This document shows positions 17,401 to 21,524 of a stretch of 64,000 bases of DNA, piece by piece. Every line of letters starts with the position of its first letter. The stretch's first letter is position 1. The position numbers were made by a program, and so were the translations under genes. The notes beneath the pieces were generated by a model. The model was not told the origin of the DNA and did no database searches. It worked only from the letters and a program-made list of their open reading frames with translations. The DNA is from Escherichia coli (lineage in GTDB: Bacteria; Pseudomonadota; Gammaproteobacteria; Enterobacterales; Enterobacteriaceae). The DNA lies in NCBI RefSeq assembly GCF_003790525.1, contig NZ_CP033635.1. One strand, written 5' to 3'.

Positions 17401-19112
17401 CGTATCTGGAAAATCTTCTTGCAGTAAAACGAATCTTCCCGACGATGATTAGCGGGCAGGAGCGTCTTGCCTGTATGGATGATGCCGCCAGGCTGCGCGA
17501 TGCCCTCGGCGTACGACTACCAGAGTCACTGCCAGAGATTTATTTGCACCGAGTCAGTTACCCGCTTCGCGACCTCTTTCTGCGCTATCTCCGGGCTCAT
17601 GCTCTGGTCACGGCTGAACAACTGGCTCATGAGTTTAGTCTCGGTATTGCCATTGTCGAAGAGCAACTTCAGCAACTGCGCGAACAGGGTCTGGTGATGA
17701 ATCTGCAACAAGACATCTGGGTGAGCGATGAAGTATTTCGTCGTCTGCGTTTGCGCTCGCTGCAAGCCGCCAGAGAAGCGACACGTCCCGTTGCGGCCAC
17801 GACCTATGCGCGATTGCTGCTGGAACGTCAGGGCGTATTACCCGCCACCGATGGTAGCCCGGCACTCTTTGCCTCAACATCGCCAGGCGTTTATGAGGGC
17901 GTGGATGGCGTGATGCGGGTGATCGAACAGCTTGCAGGAGTCGGTTTACCCGCCTCACTCTGGGAAAGCCAGATCCTGCCTGCCCGCGTACGCGACTATT
18001 CGCCAGAAATGCTCGATGAATTACTGGCAACCGGAGCGGTTATCTGGTCGGGACAAAAAAAGCTGGGTGAAGATGACGGCCTGGTGGCACTGCATCTACA
18101 GGAATATGCCGCAGAATCGTTCACTCCCGCCGAAGCAGATCAGGCGAATCGTTCGGCGCTGCAGCAAGCGATAATCGCTGTTCTGGCTGACGGAGGAGCC
18201 TGGTTTGCACAACAAATCAGCCAACGGATATGCGATAAAATCGGCGAATCGGTTGATCCCTCGGCTCTGCAAGAGGCGTTATGGGCGCTGGTCTGGCAAG
18301 GCGTCATTACCAGCGACATTTGGGCACCGTTACGCGCCCTCACCCGTAGCAGTTCCAACGCACGCACCTCGACTCGCCGCAGTCACCGGGCTCGTCGTGG
18401 GCGTCCTGTCTATACGCAACCCGTCTCGCCGCTGGTATCTTACAACACACCAAAGCTGGCCGGACGCTGGTCGTTATTGCAGGTGGAGCCACTAAACGAT
18501 ACCGAAAGGATGCTGGCGCTGGCGGAAAATATGCTCGACCGCTACGGCATCATCAGTCGTCAGGCGGTGATAGCCGAAAATATCCCTGGCGGTTTTCCAT
18601 CGATGCAAACGCTTTGTCGAAGTATGGAAGACTCCGGGCGAATTATGCGGGGTCGTTTTGTAGAAGGTCTGGGTGGCGCGCAATTCGCTGAACGTCTGAC
18701 TATTGACCGATTGCGTGACCTGGCGACACAAACCGCGCAAACGCGCCACTATACACCAGTGGCGCTCTCCGCCAACGATCCGGCTAATGTGTGGGGAAAT
18801 CTTCTGCCCTGGCCTGCACATCCGGCAACGCTGGTTCCAACGCGTCGGGCGGGTGCGCTGGTGGTCGTTTCTGGCGGCAAATTGTTACTTTATCTGGCGC
18901 AAGGTGGCAAAAAAATGCTGGTCTGGCAGGAAAAAGAGGAATTACTCGCCCCAGAGGTTTTCCACGCGCTGACTACCGCACTGCGTCGCGAACCACGGCG
19001 GCGCTTTACGCTGACAGAAGTGAATGATCTACCAGTCCGACAAACGCCGATGTTTACGCTGCTGCGTGAGGCGGGATTTTCAAGTTCGCCACAAGGGCTG
19101 GATTGGGAATAG
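14496..19112 (+). CDS. lhr: large ATP-dependent helicase Lhr
   Basis: 1538 aa ORF; Walker A APTGSGKT, DEVH box, long C-terminal extension; recognised as Lhr. Confidence 0.93.
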   Translation: MADNLNPSSPLPDVFSPATRDWFLRAFKQPTAVQSQTWHVAARGEHALVIAPTGSGKTLAAFLYALDQLFREGGEDTREAHKRKTSRILYISPIKALGTDVQRNLQIPLQGIADERRRRGETEVNLRVGIRTGDTPAQERSKLTRNPPDILITTPESLYLMLTSRARETLRGVETVIIDEVHAVAGSKRGAHLALSLERLDALLHTSAQRIGLSATVRSASDVAAFLGGDRPVTVVNPPTMRHPQIRIVVPVANMDDVSSVASGTGEDSHAGREGSIWPYIETGILDEVLRHRSTIVFTNSRGLAEKLTARLNELYAARLQRSPSIAVDAAHFESTSGATSNRVQSSDIFIARSHHGSVSKEQRAITEQALKSGELRCVVATSSLELGIDMGAVDLVIQVATPLSVASGLQRIGRAGHQVGGVSKGLFFPRTRRDLVDSAVIVECMFAGRLENLTPPHNPLDVLAQQTVAAAAMDALQVDEWYSRVRRAAPWKDLPGRVFDATLDMLSGRYPSGDFSAFRPKLVWNRETGILTARPGAQLLAVTSGGTIPDRGMYSVLLPEGEEQAGSRRVGELDEEMVYESRVNDIITLGATSWRIQQITRDQVIVTPAPGRSARLPFWRGEGNGRPAELGEMIGDFLHLLADGAFFSGTIPPWLAEENTIANIQGLIDEQRNATGIVPGSRHLVLERCRDEIGDWRIILHSPYGRRVHEPWALAIAGRIHALWGADASVVASDDGIVARIPDTDGKLPDAAIFLFEPEKLLQIVREAVGSSALFAARFRECAARALLMPGRTPGHRTPLWQQRLRASQLLEIAQGYPDFPVILETLRECLQDVYDLPALERLMRRLNGGEIQISDVTTTTPSPFAASLLFGYVAEFMYQSDAPLAERRASVLSLDSELLRNLLGQVEPGELLDPQVIRQVEEELQRLAPGRRAKGEEGLFDLLRELGPMTVEDLAQRHTGSSEEIASYLENLLAVKRIFPTMISGQERLACMDDAARLRDALGVRLPESLPEIYLHRVSYPLRDLFLRYLRAHALVTAEQLAHEFSLGIAIVEEQLQQLREQGLVMNLQQDIWVSDEVFRRLRLRSLQAAREATRPVAATTYARLLLERQGVLPATDGSPALFASTSPGVYEGVDGVMRVIEQLAGVGLPASLWESQILPARVRDYSPEMLDELLATGAVIWSGQKKLGEDDGLVALHLQEYAAESFTPAEADQANRSALQQAIIAVLADGGAWFAQQISQRICDKIGESVDPSALQEALWALVWQGVITSDIWAPLRALTRSSSNARTSTRRSHRARRGRPVYTQPVSPLVSYNTPKLAGRWSLLQVEPLNDTERMLALAENMLDRYGIISRQAVIAENIPGGFPSMQTLCRSMEDSGRIMRGRFVEGLGGAQFAERLTIDRLRDLATQTAQTRHYTPVALSANDPANVWGNLLPWPAHPATLVPTRRAGALVVVSGGKLLLYLAQGGKKMLVWQEKEELLAPEVFHALTTALRREPRRRFTLTEVNDLPVRQTPMFTLLREAGFSSSPQGLDWE

Positions 19113-19120
19113 ATAAAGAA

Positions 19121-19148
19121 CTGACGGATGCCCGTTCGCATCCGTCAG
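19121..19148. terminator. bidirectional hairpin between convergent lhr and grxD
   Basis: 10-bp stem ctgacggatg / catccgtcag with 8-nt loop between the two stop codons. Confidence 0.55.
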
Positions 19149-19162
19149 TATTGCAGGACGGA

Positions 19163-19510
19163 TTATTCAGCGTCCGGCTCTTCAGACTTGTATTTAGCGG
19201 CAGTTTCTTTGATCAACTGCTGCAGTTCGCCACGCTGATACATTTCGATCACGATATCACAACCGCCGACCAGCTCGCCGTCAACCCACAGTTGCGGGAA
19301 GGTCGGCCAGTTAGCATATTTCGGCAGTTCCGCACGAATGTCCGGATTCTGCAGGATATCAACATAGGCAAAACGTTCGCCACATGCGGCAAGCGCCTGG
19401 ACTGCCTGGGCAGAGAAACCGCAGCTCGGCAGTTTCGGTGAACCTTTCATGTACAGCAGGATCGGGTTTTCAGCAATCTGGCGTTGGATTTTTTCGATAG
19501 TGGTGCTCAT
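19163..19510 (-). CDS. grxD: monothiol glutaredoxin 4
   Basis: 115 aa ORF with CGFS active site (MSTTIEKIQRQIAENPILLYMKGSPKLPSCGFS...). Confidence 0.95.
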   Translation of the reverse strand: MSTTIEKIQRQIAENPILLYMKGSPKLPSCGFSAQAVQALAACGERFAYVDILQNPDIRAELPKYANWPTFPQLWVDGELVGGCDIVIEMYQRGELQQLIKETAAKYKSEEPDAE

Positions 19511-19844
19511 TGTCTTGCTTCCTCAAACTTCTTTACGGCAGTAATCTGACATTGTAGCGGGTCAGTGCGGCATCGGAAAATAACATTTTCATCACGCTTT
19601 TGCTATTTTATCCCTTTGTTCTATTTGTTGCATTTCAAATATTCGTTTCTTCCCTTATGCACGGCAAACTGGCGTGTTTATAACCATTTTTAGCTTTCAC
19701 TGCTGCATTTTTTTGCGCTCGCCAACGAAACGTATTTTTTAACAATAAAAGCTATTAACTTTCTCTTCTTCTATGCATTAGAATCATCAAGTTTTGTAAA
19801 TCAGACGCAGGCATGATAGACCTGCCTTAACAGAGGGACGCTCA

Positions 19845-20672
19845 GTGGCGCGGATAAACCGTATTTCGATCACGCTCTGTGCTTTACTTTTTACCACCCT
19901 GCCTTTAACGCCTATGGCCCATGCTTCAAAGCAAGCCAGGGAGAGTTCTGCTACTACTCATATCACCAAAAAAGCAGATAAAAAGAAAAGCACGGCAACC
20001 ACCAAAAAGACCCAGAAAGCCAGCCAGAAAACAGCGAAAAAAGCCGCCAGTAAAAGTACGATCAAAGGCAAAACCGCTTCTTCCGTTAAAAAATCTTCCA
20101 TTACCGCTTCTAAAAACGCCAAAACTCGCAGCAAACACGCCGTCAATAAAACGGCCTCAGCCAACTTTACCGAAAAGTGTACCAAACGTAAGGGCTATAA
20201 ATCGCATTGTGTGAAAGTCAAAAATGCCGCGTCAGGAACCCTTGCCGACGCGCACAAAGCGAAGGTGCAAAAAGCCACGAAAGTGGCAATGAATAAACTG
20301 ATGCAGCAAATTGGTAAGCCATATCGTTGGGGCGGCAGCTCACCGCGTACCGGTTTTGATTGCAGCGGCCTGGTTTATTACGCTTATAAAGATTTGGTGA
20401 AAATTCGTATTCCGCGTACGGCGAATGAAATGTATCACCTGCGAGATGCAGCGCCAATCGAACGTAGTGAACTGAAAAACGGCGACCTGGTCTTTTTCCG
20501 TACTCAGGGACGCGGTACAGCCGATCATGTCGGCGTATATGTCGGCAACGGCAAATTTATTCAGTCACCGCGTACGGGTCAGGAAATTCAAATCACTTCT
20601 CTCAGTGAAGACTACTGGCAGCGCCACTATGTTGGCGCTCGCCGGGTAATGACCCCAAAAACACTTCGCTAA
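19845..20672 (+). CDS. mepH: NlpC/P60 peptidoglycan DD-endopeptidase
   Basis: ORF from GTG 19845 (275 aa): signal peptide, Lys/Thr/Ala-rich low-complexity linker, C-terminal NlpC/P60 domain (DCSGLV...H); recognised as MepH (YdhO); exact start uncertain. Confidence 0.85.
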   Translation: MARINRISITLCALLFTTLPLTPMAHASKQARESSATTHITKKADKKKSTATTKKTQKASQKTAKKAASKSTIKGKTASSVKKSSITASKNAKTRSKHAVNKTASANFTEKCTKRKGYKSHCVKVKNAASGTLADAHKAKVQKATKVAMNKLMQQIGKPYRWGGSSPRTGFDCSGLVYYAYKDLVKIRIPRTANEMYHLRDAAPIERSELKNGDLVFFRTQGRGTADHVGVYVGNGKFIQSPRTGQEIQITSLSEDYWQRHYVGARRVMTPKTLR

Positions 20673-20799
20673 AACTTTACCCTGTTGTTACGGCAACAGG
20701 GTAAGTTCATCTTTTGTCTCACCTTTTAATTTGCTACCCTATCCATACGCACAATAAGGCTATTGTACGTATGCAAATTAATAATAAAGGAGAGTAGCA

Positions 20800-21381
20800 A
20801 TGTCATTCGAATTACCTGCACTACCATATGCTAAAGATGCTCTGGCACCGCACATTTCTGCGGAAACCATCGAGTATCACTACGGCAAGCATCATCAGAC
20901 TTATGTGACTAACCTGAACAACCTGATTAAAGGTACCGCGTTTGAAGGTAAATCACTGGAAGAGATTATTCGCAGCTCTGAAGGTGGCGTATTCAACAAC
21001 GCAGCTCAGGTCTGGAACCATACTTTCTACTGGAACTGCCTGGCACCGAACGCGGGTGGCGAACCGACTGGAAAAGTCGCTGAAGCTATCGCCGCATCTT
21101 TTGGCAGCTTTGCCGATTTCAAAGCTCAGTTTACTGATGCAGCGATCAAAAACTTTGGTTCTGGCTGGACCTGGCTGGTGAAAAACAGCGATGGCAAGCT
21201 GGCTATCGTTTCAACCTCTAACGCGGGTACTCCACTGACCACCGATGCAACTCCGCTGCTGACCGTTGATGTCTGGGAACACGCTTATTACATCGACTAT
21301 CGCAATGCACGTCCTGGCTATCTGGAGCACTTCTGGGCGCTGGTGAACTGGGAATTCGTAGCGAAAAATCTCGCTGCATAA
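20800..21381 (+). CDS. sodB: Fe superoxide dismutase
   Basis: 193 aa [39 protein letters not shown]... recognised as SodB. Confidence 0.96.
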
Positions 21382-21404
21382 TAACTGATGGCAAATGCAG
21401 CATT

Positions 21405-21465
21405 GCCTGATGCGCTTCGCTTACCATGCCAACACGGATGAGTCGTTAACACCGCATCCGGCAAG
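21405..21465. repeat. REP-like palindromic units downstream of sodB
   Basis: gcctgatgcgcttcgcttaccatgcc and inverted ...accgcatccggcaag resemble the REP consensus GCCKGATGCGRCG. Confidence 0.4.
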
Positions 21466-21491
21466 ATAAATCGCACGTTGCCAGCAACTGT

Positions 21492-21524
21492 AACGCAGAA
21501 GGTTATCCTTCTGCGTTTTTGTTT
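21492..21524. terminator. intrinsic terminator after sodB, abutting the ydhP stop
   Basis: stem aacgcagaagg / ccttctgcgtt, loop ttat, then TTTTTGTTT. Confidence 0.7.

Follow-up and report, generated by a model that had tools for sequence, protein, structure and literature searches.

A lysine-rich, predicted disordered N-terminal tail in the NlpC/P60 endopeptidase MepH of Escherichia coli

Genomic context and identity of mepH

The analysed window, a 64,000-nucleotide stretch of Escherichia coli contig NZ_CP033635.1, carries at 19845..20672 (+) the gene mepH (ydhO), found in the ORF list with a GTG start and a product of 275 amino acids. Its neighbours lhr, grxD (-), sodB, and ydhP are the same in the window and in RefSeq, and the RefSeq mepH annotation in E. 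coli SMS-3-5 has an identical start, with a DNA identity of 99.9%. Of 5426 complete E. coli genomes, 5425 gave a mepH match, every full-length record listed being annotated mepH. Near-identity together with the same position (grxD divergent upstream, sodB downstream) places the gene in the MepH orthologue group. It encodes E. coli MepH, a predicted periplasmic NlpC/P60 DD-endopeptidase, and the RefSeq annotation, the identity to SMS-3-5, and the NlpC/P60 match described below all confirm the assignment made in the first-pass annotation. Together with MepS and MepM, MepH makes up the redundantly essential trio of "space-maker" endopeptidases in E. coli, and it becomes a requirement in a strain deleted for both mepS and mepM. 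DD-endopeptidase activity of E. coli MepH on D-Ala-mDAP cross-links is attributed to Singh et al. 2012 in passages of PMC11211486 and PMC11789061.

Upstream of mepH, a consensus scan returned a sigma-70-like promoter candidate, TTAACT-18-TAGAAT, at 19755..19784 (+) with 9 of 12 matches; it is no more than a pattern match, of a kind at least as frequent in shuffled sequence. Directly 3' of the stop codon lies an intrinsic-terminator-like hairpin with a T-rich tail at 20676..20715 (+), comprising a 13-bp stem followed by TTCATCTTTT. An Rfam search over 19000-21500 at E <= 1 returned no RNA family overlapping the lysine-rich segment of mepH. A +1 open frame of 97 codons at 19921..20214 (+), Pro/Arg/Lys-rich and with a net charge of +29, overlaps the coding region of this segment, and the frameshifted mepH variants P0013, P0025, P0035, P0043, P0050, P0070, and P0136 read into it. 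Lacking RefSeq annotation, it was rejected as a gene and regarded as a by-product of A-rich codons; the ORFs at 19926-20138 (-) and 19958-20185 (-), stop-free by-products of AAA/AAG-rich codons that are likewise unannotated in RefSeq, were rejected as well.

Signal peptide and catalytic domain

Residues 1-27 (19845..19925, +) form a predicted Sec/SPase I signal peptide, read from the sequence as MARINR, a hydrophobic core, and the cleavage motif A-H-A↓S. In 45 aligned orthologues, A2, R3, I4, T10-L14, F16, and S28 of this region are invariant. The sole cysteine of the signal peptide, C12, follows I-T-L and a hydrophobic stretch of only five residues, which does not match the lipobox L-[AS]-[GA]-C; with no lipobox and an SPase I-type motif, classification of MepH as a lipoprotein was rejected.

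Two AlphaFold2 models were used. The full-length model, built from 45 close orthologues, reached a mean pLDDT of 53.7 with low values in the catalytic domain as well, and thus informs only on the absence of structure in the N-terminal tail. The second, covering aa 100-275 and built from 95 more diverse sequences, reached a mean pLDDT of 91.9. In both models, DSSP assigned a long alpha-helix to aa 133-154 (20241..20306, +), leading into the NlpC/P60 catalytic domain at aa 157-267 (20313..20645, +). This domain matches Pfam PF00877 (peptidase family C40) with E = 8.5e-37 and a score of 125.8 bits (cut-off 23), and the match spans the whole profile (positions 1-105 of 105). The aa 100-275 model matches NlpC/P60 structures at a probability of 1.00 and displays their papain-like alpha+beta fold. 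The catalytic residues C173 and H228, within the DCSG and H-V-G motifs, are invariant in the 45 and in the 95 aligned sequences. The third triad position is occupied by Q240, invariant in MepH orthologues, whereas MepS has histidine there. MepH and MepS share 36% identity over aa 149-270 in a BLAST alignment, and the longest Foldseek alignments of the MepH model (145-147 columns) are with the NlpI-bound MepS chains 8xup and 8xud. In the model, the helix at aa 133-154 corresponds to the extended alpha-1 helix of NlpI-bound MepS, of which it is the predicted counterpart.

Composition and disorder of the lysine-rich tail

The first-pass annotation had described a highly basic Ala/Lys/Thr/Ser-rich, low-complexity segment located between the signal peptide and the NlpC/P60 domain, and both its position and its composition hold. 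Codon 41 starts at position 19965, so that 19965-20235 corresponds in frame to codons 41-130; the translation, TKKADKKKSTATTKKTQKASQKTAKKAASKSTIKGKTASSVKKSSITASKNAKTRSKHAVNKTASANFTEKCTKRKGYKSHCVKVKNAAS, is identical to the peptide quoted previously. These 90 residues contain 26 lysines (29%), 16% alanine, 14% threonine, and 14% serine, with only 2 acidic residues, giving a net charge of +25.5 and a pI of 10.75. The wider region of aa 28-142 has a net charge of about +28 and eight dibasic sites. Against the window lysine frequency of 3.9%, the lysine content has a binomial probability of ~6e-16. Among the 45 ORFs in the window with 200 aa or more, the best 90-residue stretch outside MepH reaches at most 11 lysines and a net charge of at most +9, compared with 26 and +26 in MepH.

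Low complexity applies to aa 28-106 (19926..20162, +), a polycationic Lys/Ser/Thr/Ala-rich tail delimited by composition, pLDDT, and lack of Pfam or PDB matches, but not to the C-terminal third of the segment, which holds the conserved hairpin described below. The catalytic part has a Shannon entropy of 4.15 bits, the tail one of only 2.96-3.16 bits. In the full-length model, aa 15-107 have pLDDT <50 and no DSSP secondary structure. Predicted disorder and a low-complexity polar and charged make-up place the tail among disordered regions on composition. An autocorrelation of the basic residues revealed no helical periodicity above chance, giving no sign of an amphipathic or charged-face helix; as hydrophobic residues also account for only ~7% of the tail, it is unlikely to insert into a membrane or to form a folded domain. 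When aa 28-142 were scanned against Pfam at E <= 10, the sole match was a meaningless one to DUF2992 at E = 9, and a PDB sequence search returned no solved structure over aa 28-105. The coding segment contains seven A5-A6 runs. Tandem Repeats Finder, run over 19800-20700 at the lowest score threshold, detected no repeat array, and a recent repeat expansion was rejected.

The earlier description of the segment as a linker does not stand. SPase I cleavage at A-H-A↓S would leave nothing N-terminal to the segment, indicating that it forms the free N-terminus of mature MepH rather than a connection between modules. The same absence of a preceding module, combined with the missing lipobox, leaves no anchor from which the enzyme could be spaced, and of the proposed disordered spacer only the predicted disorder is retained.

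A conserved basic hairpin

The N-terminal extension of MepH is a two-part structure, in which the disordered tail of aa 28-106 is followed by a basic beta-hairpin at aa 107-127 (20163..20225, +), recognised by conservation and in the AlphaFold2 model and conforming to T-E-K-C-T-x-R-K-G-x-K-x-x-C-V-K-V-K. C112, K116, and C122 are invariant in the alignment, while K111, T113, R115, G117, and K119 are conserved in at least 90% of sequences. In the model of aa 100-275, the strands comprise aa 107-113 and 121-127, with C112 facing C122 across them, and the 10-residue blocks spanning the hairpin have average pLDDT values of 86 and 73. This modelled geometry suggests that C112 and C122 probably form a periplasmic disulfide. 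None of the solved structures compared with this model aligns over the hairpin, at most 147 of its 176 residues being aligned.

Natural alleles of the tail

Comparison with O157:H7 DNA identified a 12-bp indel, GCCAGCCAGAAA, at 20019..20030 (+), flanked by the direct repeat CAGAAA and encoding Ala-Ser-Gln-Lys (aa 59-62). The insert is present in the window, giving the 275-aa allele, and absent from a 271-aa allele; in 29 evenly spaced full-length E. coli matches, the long form occurs 11 times and the short form 18 times. Rare alleles carry large in-frame deletions, two of which (210 and 214 aa, each represented by a single sequence) are without the hairpin as well. Deletion alleles mostly form single-sequence clusters, whereas the main cluster numbers 2994 member sequences. 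Their existence, and the dispensability of mepH on its own, indicate that loss of the tail is tolerated at least sometimes.

Conservation and distribution across enterobacteria

In 75 distinct orthologue tails from outside Escherichia, identity to the window sequence is only 25-56%, while length is 77.9 ± 5.3 aa, net charge is +19.7 ± 1.6, K+R content is 28 ± 2%, and D+E content is 3 ± 1%. The dN/dS ratio is 0.22-0.55 in the tail compared with 0.03-0.05 in the catalytic domain, figures that are rough because dS is saturated between genera and alignment of low-complexity sequence is unreliable. Protein-level change is 5-10 times faster in the tail than in the domain. These sequence comparisons indicate purifying, though relaxed, selection on the tail, acting on length and charge rather than on sequence. 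Since both properties are conserved across enterobacteria while the sequence is not, the tail is probably functional. The same pattern, together with dN/dS below 1, is hard to reconcile with a neutral spacer.

The distribution was followed in representatives of 50%-identity clusters, identity being measured in the catalytic domain. At 66.4% identity or above, the N-terminal regions of representatives with a recognisable signal peptide have net charges of +21 to +35, with the single exception of P0137, whose N-terminus looks unrelated. Named representatives with a basic N-terminus are Dickeya (a tail of 180 aa), Affinibrenneria, and Rouxiella; the Dickeya and Rouxiella genes adjoin grxD, like E. 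coli mepH, and strongly basic tails also occur in syntenic orthologues of Pectobacteriaceae and Yersiniaceae. Below ~60% identity, N-termini are mostly shorter, with net charges of -7 to +18, apart from the higher-charge exceptions P0165 (+43), P0201 (+21), and P0238 (+21). Lipoboxes, detected in many of the more distant homologues, become common only under about 52% identity. Conservation of length, raised earlier as a check, is thus borne out within Enterobacteriaceae (78 ± 5 aa), whereas outside this family N-terminal regions vary from about 65 to 200 aa.

Possible role of the tail

Placing and limiting dangerous endopeptidase activity is a standing question of cell-wall biology, and the MepS N-terminus has proved to be an adaptor docking element; the MepH tail is far longer and very basic. 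With the identity, anatomy, composition, predicted disorder, conservation pattern, and clade distribution of the tail in hand, the reading ranked first, tentatively and at somewhat below even chances, is that the tail associates electrostatically and non-specifically with the anionic sacculus or envelope. A disordered polyelectrolyte of ~80 residues with a net charge of ~+20 would make non-specific multivalent contacts with anionic envelope polymers, the first-choice partner being carboxylate-rich peptidoglycan, with anionic phospholipid head groups and periplasmic glucans as alternatives. Such contacts would concentrate a non-anchored endopeptidase on the sacculus and allow the tail to thread into it. 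The basic hairpin sits just before the long helix entering the NlpC/P60 domain. In the related lipoproteins MepS and NlpC, the equivalent job falls to a lipid anchor and a short neutral disordered region. As a secondary effect, a long unfolded tail would make MepH an easy Prc substrate, and the tail possibly also affects Prc/NlpI turnover. Sequence statistics and analogy are what suggest this mechanism; the disulfide is inferred, as are a partner for the tail and any influence that it has on localisation, activity, or turnover. The tether idea proposed in the first-pass annotation is compatible with all results.

Precedents from the literature bear on this reading. The extracytoplasmic disordered regions of PBP1 and RsgI in B. 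subtilis are charged and polar but poorly conserved, scrambled versions still work, and the authors propose non-specific multivalent contacts with the peptidoglycan lining gaps (PMC9732909). In the paralogue MepS, the disordered N-terminus has a function, as it docks to NlpI (PMC11211486). Complementing activity was lost in domain swaps between MepS and MepH and in re-targeted chimeras of MepH, indicating that non-catalytic regions matter; MepH anchored in the outer membrane by the MepS N-terminus could no longer substitute for MepS, so that the tail is not simply interchangeable with a lipid anchor (PMC7516022). Beyond these whole-region swaps, the literature searched yielded no study of the MepH tail, including binding, localisation, or deletion work. 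MepH without a tag precipitates in PBS, and its degradation by Prc is quick even when NlpI is absent (PMC8996183); both can be read as what a protein with a long polycationic unfolded tail would be expected to do.

Other explanations can be set against this. The tail might act mainly as a turnover handle, setting MepH abundance through recognition or engagement by NlpI, Prc, or both. The disordered N-terminus of MepS is both required and sufficient for binding to NlpI, folding as it binds (PMC11211486), Prc degradation of MepH is accelerated by NlpI with BipP blocking the NlpI-dependent part (PMC8996183, PMC11789061), and the rapid adaptor-free degradation by Prc would be favoured by a long unfolded segment. 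However, the MepS-NlpI contacts are hydrophobic (L24, F31, L34, V35, V38, alpha-1 helix; PMC11211486), whereas only ~7% of the MepH tail is hydrophobic, and the predicted MepH counterpart of the contact helix, aa 133-154, lies outside the tail. MepH places A128, D135, K138, A139, and Q142 at the MepS contact positions, as extrapolated from a BLAST alignment extended by hand without gaps. Prc is described as a carboxyl-terminal processing protease, while the tail is N-terminal, and a degron would leave the conserved net charge of ~+20 unexplained, so that this role is considered unlikely. A probe of pores or gaps, in which the tail threads peptidoglycan pores and biases the sites of cutting, with disorder and length outweighing charge, follows the proposal made for B. 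subtilis PBP1 and RsgI and overlaps largely with the electrostatic explanation. Its appeal lies in the hallmarks shared with PBP1 and RsgI (a charged and polar, poorly conserved region, poor in hydrophobic and aromatic residues, on a cell-wall enzyme) and in the tight length within Enterobacteriaceae. It leaves the near-total exclusion of acidic residues (3%) and the narrow net charge unexplained, has to accommodate the variable length outside this family, and draws by analogy on a Gram-positive precedent rather than on a Gram-negative soluble hydrolase; it is judged distinctly unlikely.

That the tail is a non-functional expansion, an A-rich and slippage-prone stretch tolerated as a harmless passive appendage, would account for the indel polymorphism with its 6-bp direct repeat, the seven A5-A6 runs, the frameshifted and in-frame deletion alleles, the faster protein-level evolution, and the dispensability of mepH individually. 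Yet no repeat array was found, deletion alleles are rare, dN/dS lies below 1, and the embedded Cys-x9-Cys motif is nearly invariant, while length and net charge remain narrow in tails of only 25-56% identity and basic tails are kept in positional orthologues of three enterobacterial families, making this explanation very unlikely. The histone-H1-like character noted in the first pass is accurate for composition alone, as no Pfam family relationship was found and the segment is Ser/Thr-rich (28% Ser+Thr) with 0% proline. A true H1-like function, in which the Lys/Ala-rich segment binds nucleic acid, would draw on this compositional resemblance, but the conserved cleavable signal peptide and the absence of any histone or nucleoid-protein profile match oppose it, MepH being described as periplasmic from signal-sequence prediction. 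The DNA-binding reading is scarcely credible and was rejected on this predicted location.

The electrostatic reading can be extended to a fuller scheme, doubtful when taken whole, in which a tail tuned in charge and length and a disulfide-locked hairpin would hold or thread MepH at the sacculus, setting the site and amount of cutting as well as the speed of removal by Prc, as an electrostatic alternative to the lipid anchor of its lipoprotein relatives; this device would have been gained in the ancestor of the MepH clade of Enterobacterales.

Comparison with known systems

MepS (Spr; PDB 8xup, 8xud, 7v6s; PMC11211486) belongs to the same catalytic family and provides the best long structural matches. 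Like MepH, it opens peptidoglycan cross-links under Prc/NlpI control, and in both proteins a disordered segment is followed by a long helix and then the domain. Unlike MepH, MepS is an outer-membrane lipoprotein with a disordered segment of about 36 aa (PMC11211486) that, as read from its sequence, is not basic and works through hydrophobic residues docking to NlpI. MepH has no lipid anchor, and its ~80-aa segment, with very few hydrophobic residues, is joined to a Cys-x9-Cys hairpin that has no counterpart in MepS.

The PBP1 and RsgI regions (Brunet et al. 2022, PMC9732909) resemble the MepH tail in being disordered, charged and polar, and poor in hydrophobic residues, with composition outlasting sequence. 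They differ in being C-terminal parts of membrane-anchored proteins in a Gram-positive organism and in not being described as strongly polycationic, and their function is experimentally demonstrated, whereas the MepH tail, of putative function, is N-terminal, belongs to a soluble periplasmic hydrolase, and has an extreme positive charge. The histone H1 C-terminal tail and the bacterial Lys/Ala-rich H1-like proteins share with MepH a long disordered Lys/Ala-rich polycation, but they act in the nucleoid rather than the periplasm and have no sequence-family relationship to MepH. H1 tails typically contain proline and are richer in lysine and alanine than the MepH tail. Lpo factors are lipoproteins whose disordered stretches space them from a lipid anchor. 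As activators of Gram-negative class A PBPs, they are like MepH envelope proteins that have to act across or within the peptidoglycan mesh; in contrast to unanchored MepH, they are described in a passage of PMC9732909 as outer-membrane-localised, and the same paper cites their interaction with aPBPs through the mesh.

The gene for MepH is well known, and the tail is an ordinary but real feature of it. Should electrostatic or pore-threading targeting be true, disordered regions would be a general means by which Gram-negative bacteria, like Gram-positive ones, position their wall enzymes, and a targeting element would account for the lack of interchangeability between MepH and MepS; a dispensable tail would be merely a compositional curiosity. 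Screening at physiological ionic strength acts against electrostatic attraction. The extreme charge of the tail and the eight dibasic sites of aa 28-142 may also relate to the insolubility of untagged MepH.

Composition and genomic context of the basic segment

The gene mepH (ORF list, 19845..20672, + strand, GTG start, 275 aa) is a well-known gene that carries an annotation in virtually all complete E. coli genomes. It was matched by megablast in 5,425 of 5,426 such genomes, and the best match, SMS-3-5 (99.9% identity), is annotated as peptidoglycan DD-endopeptidase MepH with an identical start codon. The neighbours of mepH are lhr, grxD (opposite strand), sodB, and ydhP. With a candidate promoter-like site upstream (19755-19784) and a strong terminator-like hairpin after the gene (20676-20705), mepH looks monocistronic. 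The NlpC/P60 domain occupies aa 157-267 (Pfam, E = 8.5e-37). Its third catalytic position, Q240 (20562-20564), is Gln without exception among MepH orthologues, versus His in MepS.

Codon 41 begins at position 19965, and reading 19965-20235 in frame gives exactly the peptide described in the first-pass annotation as a lysine-rich, Ala/Thr/Ser-rich segment. The description is borne out: aa 41-130 comprise 29% Lys, 16% Ala, 14% Thr, and 14% Ser, with only two acidic residues and a net charge of +25.5. The window contains 45 ORFs of 200 aa or more, and apart from mepH their 90-residue stretches reach at most 11 Lys and a net charge of at most +9. The basic character of the segment is statistically extreme and far outside chance (binomial P ~6e-16 for Lys enrichment).

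The codons of the tail are 41% A, with an AAA:AAG ratio of 22:5. The +1 frame and two antisense ORFs over the tail carry no annotation and were set aside as by-products of these A-rich codons, and Rfam returned no match within the basic segment. A 50-aa hypothetical protein, WP_001299740.1, is annotated antisense in the grxD-mepH intergenic region of some RefSeq E. coli genomes; its ORF (894-1046, - strand, of retrieved locus L002, corresponding to near window 19590-19745) is absent from the annotation of SMS-3-5, among others. A sub-threshold Rfam match to the SodB 5'-UTR thermometer (20725-20829, +; 31 bits, where the gathering threshold is 98; E = 0.003) lies between mepH and sodB, immediately upstream of sodB.

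Architecture of the mature N-terminus

MepH begins with a classical Sec signal peptide (aa 1-27), composed of MARINR, a hydrophobic core, and A-H-A↓S, with key positions invariant among orthologues; inspection of its sequence found no lipobox. Signal-peptide cleavage would therefore leave the basic segment as the free N-terminus of mature MepH. Read from sequence, the segment is a tail and not a linker joining two modules, so that "linker" and "spacer", the terms first applied to it, are misnomers. The tail, aa 28-106 (19926-20162), has an entropy of 2.96 bits, compared with 4.15 bits in the catalytic part, and AlphaFold2 gives it pLDDT values below 50 and no predicted secondary structure. The earlier designation of the whole interval as low complexity thus holds for the tail and fails for aa 107-127 (20163-20225), which carry the conserved motif T-E-K-C-T-x-R-K-G-x-K-x-x-C-V-K-V-K. 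In the orthologue alignment, C112, K116, and C122 are invariant, and conservation is 90% or higher at K111, T113, R115, G117, and K119.

An AlphaFold2 model of aa 100-275 from a deeper alignment reached a mean pLDDT of 91.9 and renders aa 107-127 as a beta-hairpin whose two strands are aa 107-113 and 121-127 (pLDDT 86 and 73 as means of the 10-residue blocks covering it). In the modelled register C112 lies opposite C122 across the strands, an arrangement suggestive of a disulfide in the periplasm. Residues 133-154 form a long helix that leads into the NlpC/P60 domain and is the counterpart of the extended alpha-1 helix of MepS; the longest Foldseek alignments, of 145-147 columns, are with NlpI-bound MepS chains. 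By PDB sequence search and Foldseek, no solved structure, NlpC/P60 ones included, aligns with the hairpin or tail. The distinction within this region between the disordered tail and the conserved hairpin (Cys-x9-Cys) is an addition of the present analysis.

Conservation across Enterobacterales

The homologue search yielded 1,647 sequences with E <= 1e-10, the best 120 of which are all Enterobacteriaceae-type MepH of 210-290 aa. Among 91 clean full-length sequences, those of non-Escherichia genera share 79-93% identity with the window protein over helix plus domain and merely 25-56% over the tail. The 75 distinct non-Escherichia tails measure 77.9 ± 5.3 aa, with 28 ± 2% K+R, 3 ± 1% D+E, 7% hydrophobic residues, and a net charge of +19.7 ± 1.6. 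Length and charge are thus tightly kept despite turnover of the tail sequence, a further addition of this work.

Nei-Gojobori comparison of the window with E. albertii, two Citrobacter, and Salmonella, all four with mepH syntenic in the grxD-sodB interval, gave dN/dS of 0.22-0.55 for the tail versus 0.03-0.05 for the domain, figures made approximate by saturation of dS between genera and by the uncertainty of aligning low-complexity sequence. They still indicate constraint on the tail that is relaxed, yet not absent. Against E. albertii (locus L005), the tail has a dS of 0.24, roughly one third of that in the catalytic part (20226-20669; 0.75); strong AAA codon preference, a constraint on A-rich DNA, or recombination are possible causes.

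A full HMMER scan with aa 100-275 over 1.84 billion cluster representatives extended the comparison. Representatives with a signal peptide and a catalytic-domain identity of 66.4% or more have N-terminal net charges of +21 to +35, the sole exception being P0137, whose N-terminus looks unrelated. Their basic regions span ~65-200 aa with varied composition (Lys/Arg/Pro/His/Gln), so that conservation of length across enterobacteria, a check proposed in the first-pass annotation, is seen in the 75 tails and not in this wider set. Carriers include, in Pectobacteriaceae, Dickeya zeae and Affinibrenneria salicis and, in Yersiniaceae, Rouxiella; in Dickeya and Rouxiella the gene adjoins grxD, as in E. 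coli. Below ~60% identity, most representatives have shorter N-termini with net charges of -7 to +18, apart from the higher-charge outliers P0165 (+43), P0201 (+21), and P0238 (+21), and lipoboxes are common only under ~52%. The polycationic tail is thus a signature of the Enterobacterales MepH clade, and its restriction to that clade is also new here. Among the sequences examined, the full-form Cys-x9-Cys hairpin occurs mainly in Enterobacteriaceae. The top-scoring distant matches (P0121, P0122, P0125, P0126, P0129, and others) differ sharply from MepH in architecture: they are large, carry 3-9 NlpC/P60 domains in tandem, and have acidic N-terminal regions.

Proposed role of the tail

MepH, MepS, and MepM are three redundantly essential DD-endopeptidases, MepH being dispensable singly and needed in delta-mepS delta-mepM (PMC11211486, PMC11789061). 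Complementing activity is lost when MepH is re-targeted to either the inner or the outer membrane, and likewise in MepS/MepH domain swaps (Park et al., PMC7516022); therefore the non-catalytic part and a free periplasmic location matter. Those constructs were whole-region swaps and re-targeting, and a literature search of the searchable library found no paper discussing the tail.

A free, disordered, hydrophobic-poor chain that keeps charge and length while its sequence changes is most simply a non-specific, multivalent electrostatic polyelectrolyte. Peptidoglycan is an evident polyanion of the periplasm, as are anionic lipids or glucans, and we therefore favour association with the sacculus. 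Tentatively, and with somewhat less than even confidence, we propose that the tail keeps unanchored MepH on, or threaded into, the sacculus, with the basic hairpin, probably disulfide-locked, making a more specific contact near the domain. The inactivity of outer-membrane-anchored MepH in complementation (PMC7516022) and the occurrence of rare natural deletion alleles count against this proposal. B. subtilis PBP1 and RsgI provide the closest functional precedent: their extracytoplasmic disordered regions tolerate scrambling and are proposed by the authors of that work to contact peptidoglycan lining gaps (PMC9732909). The MepH tail fits best among the functional disordered regions already described on cell-wall enzymes, as an uncharacterised example.

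The tail could instead serve as a turnover handle for NlpI/Prc. Prc degrades MepH, quickly even without NlpI (PMC8996183); NlpI speeds degradation, and BipP blocks the NlpI-dependent part (PMC8996183, PMC11789061). Untagged MepH also precipitates in PBS (PMC8996183). In MepS, a 36-residue disordered N-terminus docks hydrophobically onto NlpI and folds into the extended helix (PMC11211486). This explanation is weakened because hydrophobic residues mediate those contacts, which correspond to the helix rather than the tail, and because it leaves the conserved charge unaccounted for; we regard it as possible but doubtful. A pore probe acting independently of charge is improbable, and a tail that is tolerated junk, an idea weakened by the conservation statistics, slightly more so. 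The "histone-H1-like" label initially given to the segment reflects likeness in composition only: a Pfam scan of the tail gave no family match, and with the compartment excluding it, true H1-like nucleic-acid binding is extremely unlikely.

Variation within E. coli

Two common mepH alleles encode 275 aa (the window) and 271 aa. The shorter lacks the 12 bp GCCAGCCAGAAA (Ala-Ser-Gln-Lys, aa 59-62; 20019-20030), an indel bounded by the direct repeat CAGAAA, and the long form is present in 11 of 29 evenly spaced full-length E. coli matches. Rare in-frame tail deletions among database variants leave proteins of 261, 262, and 239-245 aa, and variants of 210 and 214 aa (single-sequence clusters) also lack the Cys hairpin. 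These in-frame forms (210-262 aa: P0010, P0011, P0014-P0016, P0019, P0034, and P0048) provide natural "linker-deletion" alleles.

Seven A5-A6 runs occur in the tail, at 19968, 19980, 20004, 20037, 20088, 20112, and 20220. Several database variants shift inside the tail to the open +1 frame (19921-20214; Pro/Arg/Lys-rich, net charge +29), and some shift back. Of these, P0035, a 246-aa form that begins at the ATG of the +1 frame, represents 101 sequences on 36 contigs, one of them 4.83 Mb. The frameshifted forms may be real pseudogenes or homopolymer sequencing errors. In E. coli TUM2805 (L004, NZ_CP128950.1, a 4.09-Mb genome), the gene is deleted: mepH is reduced to its final 114 bp (2503-2616), a remnant annotated as a partial pseudogene that abuts grxD.
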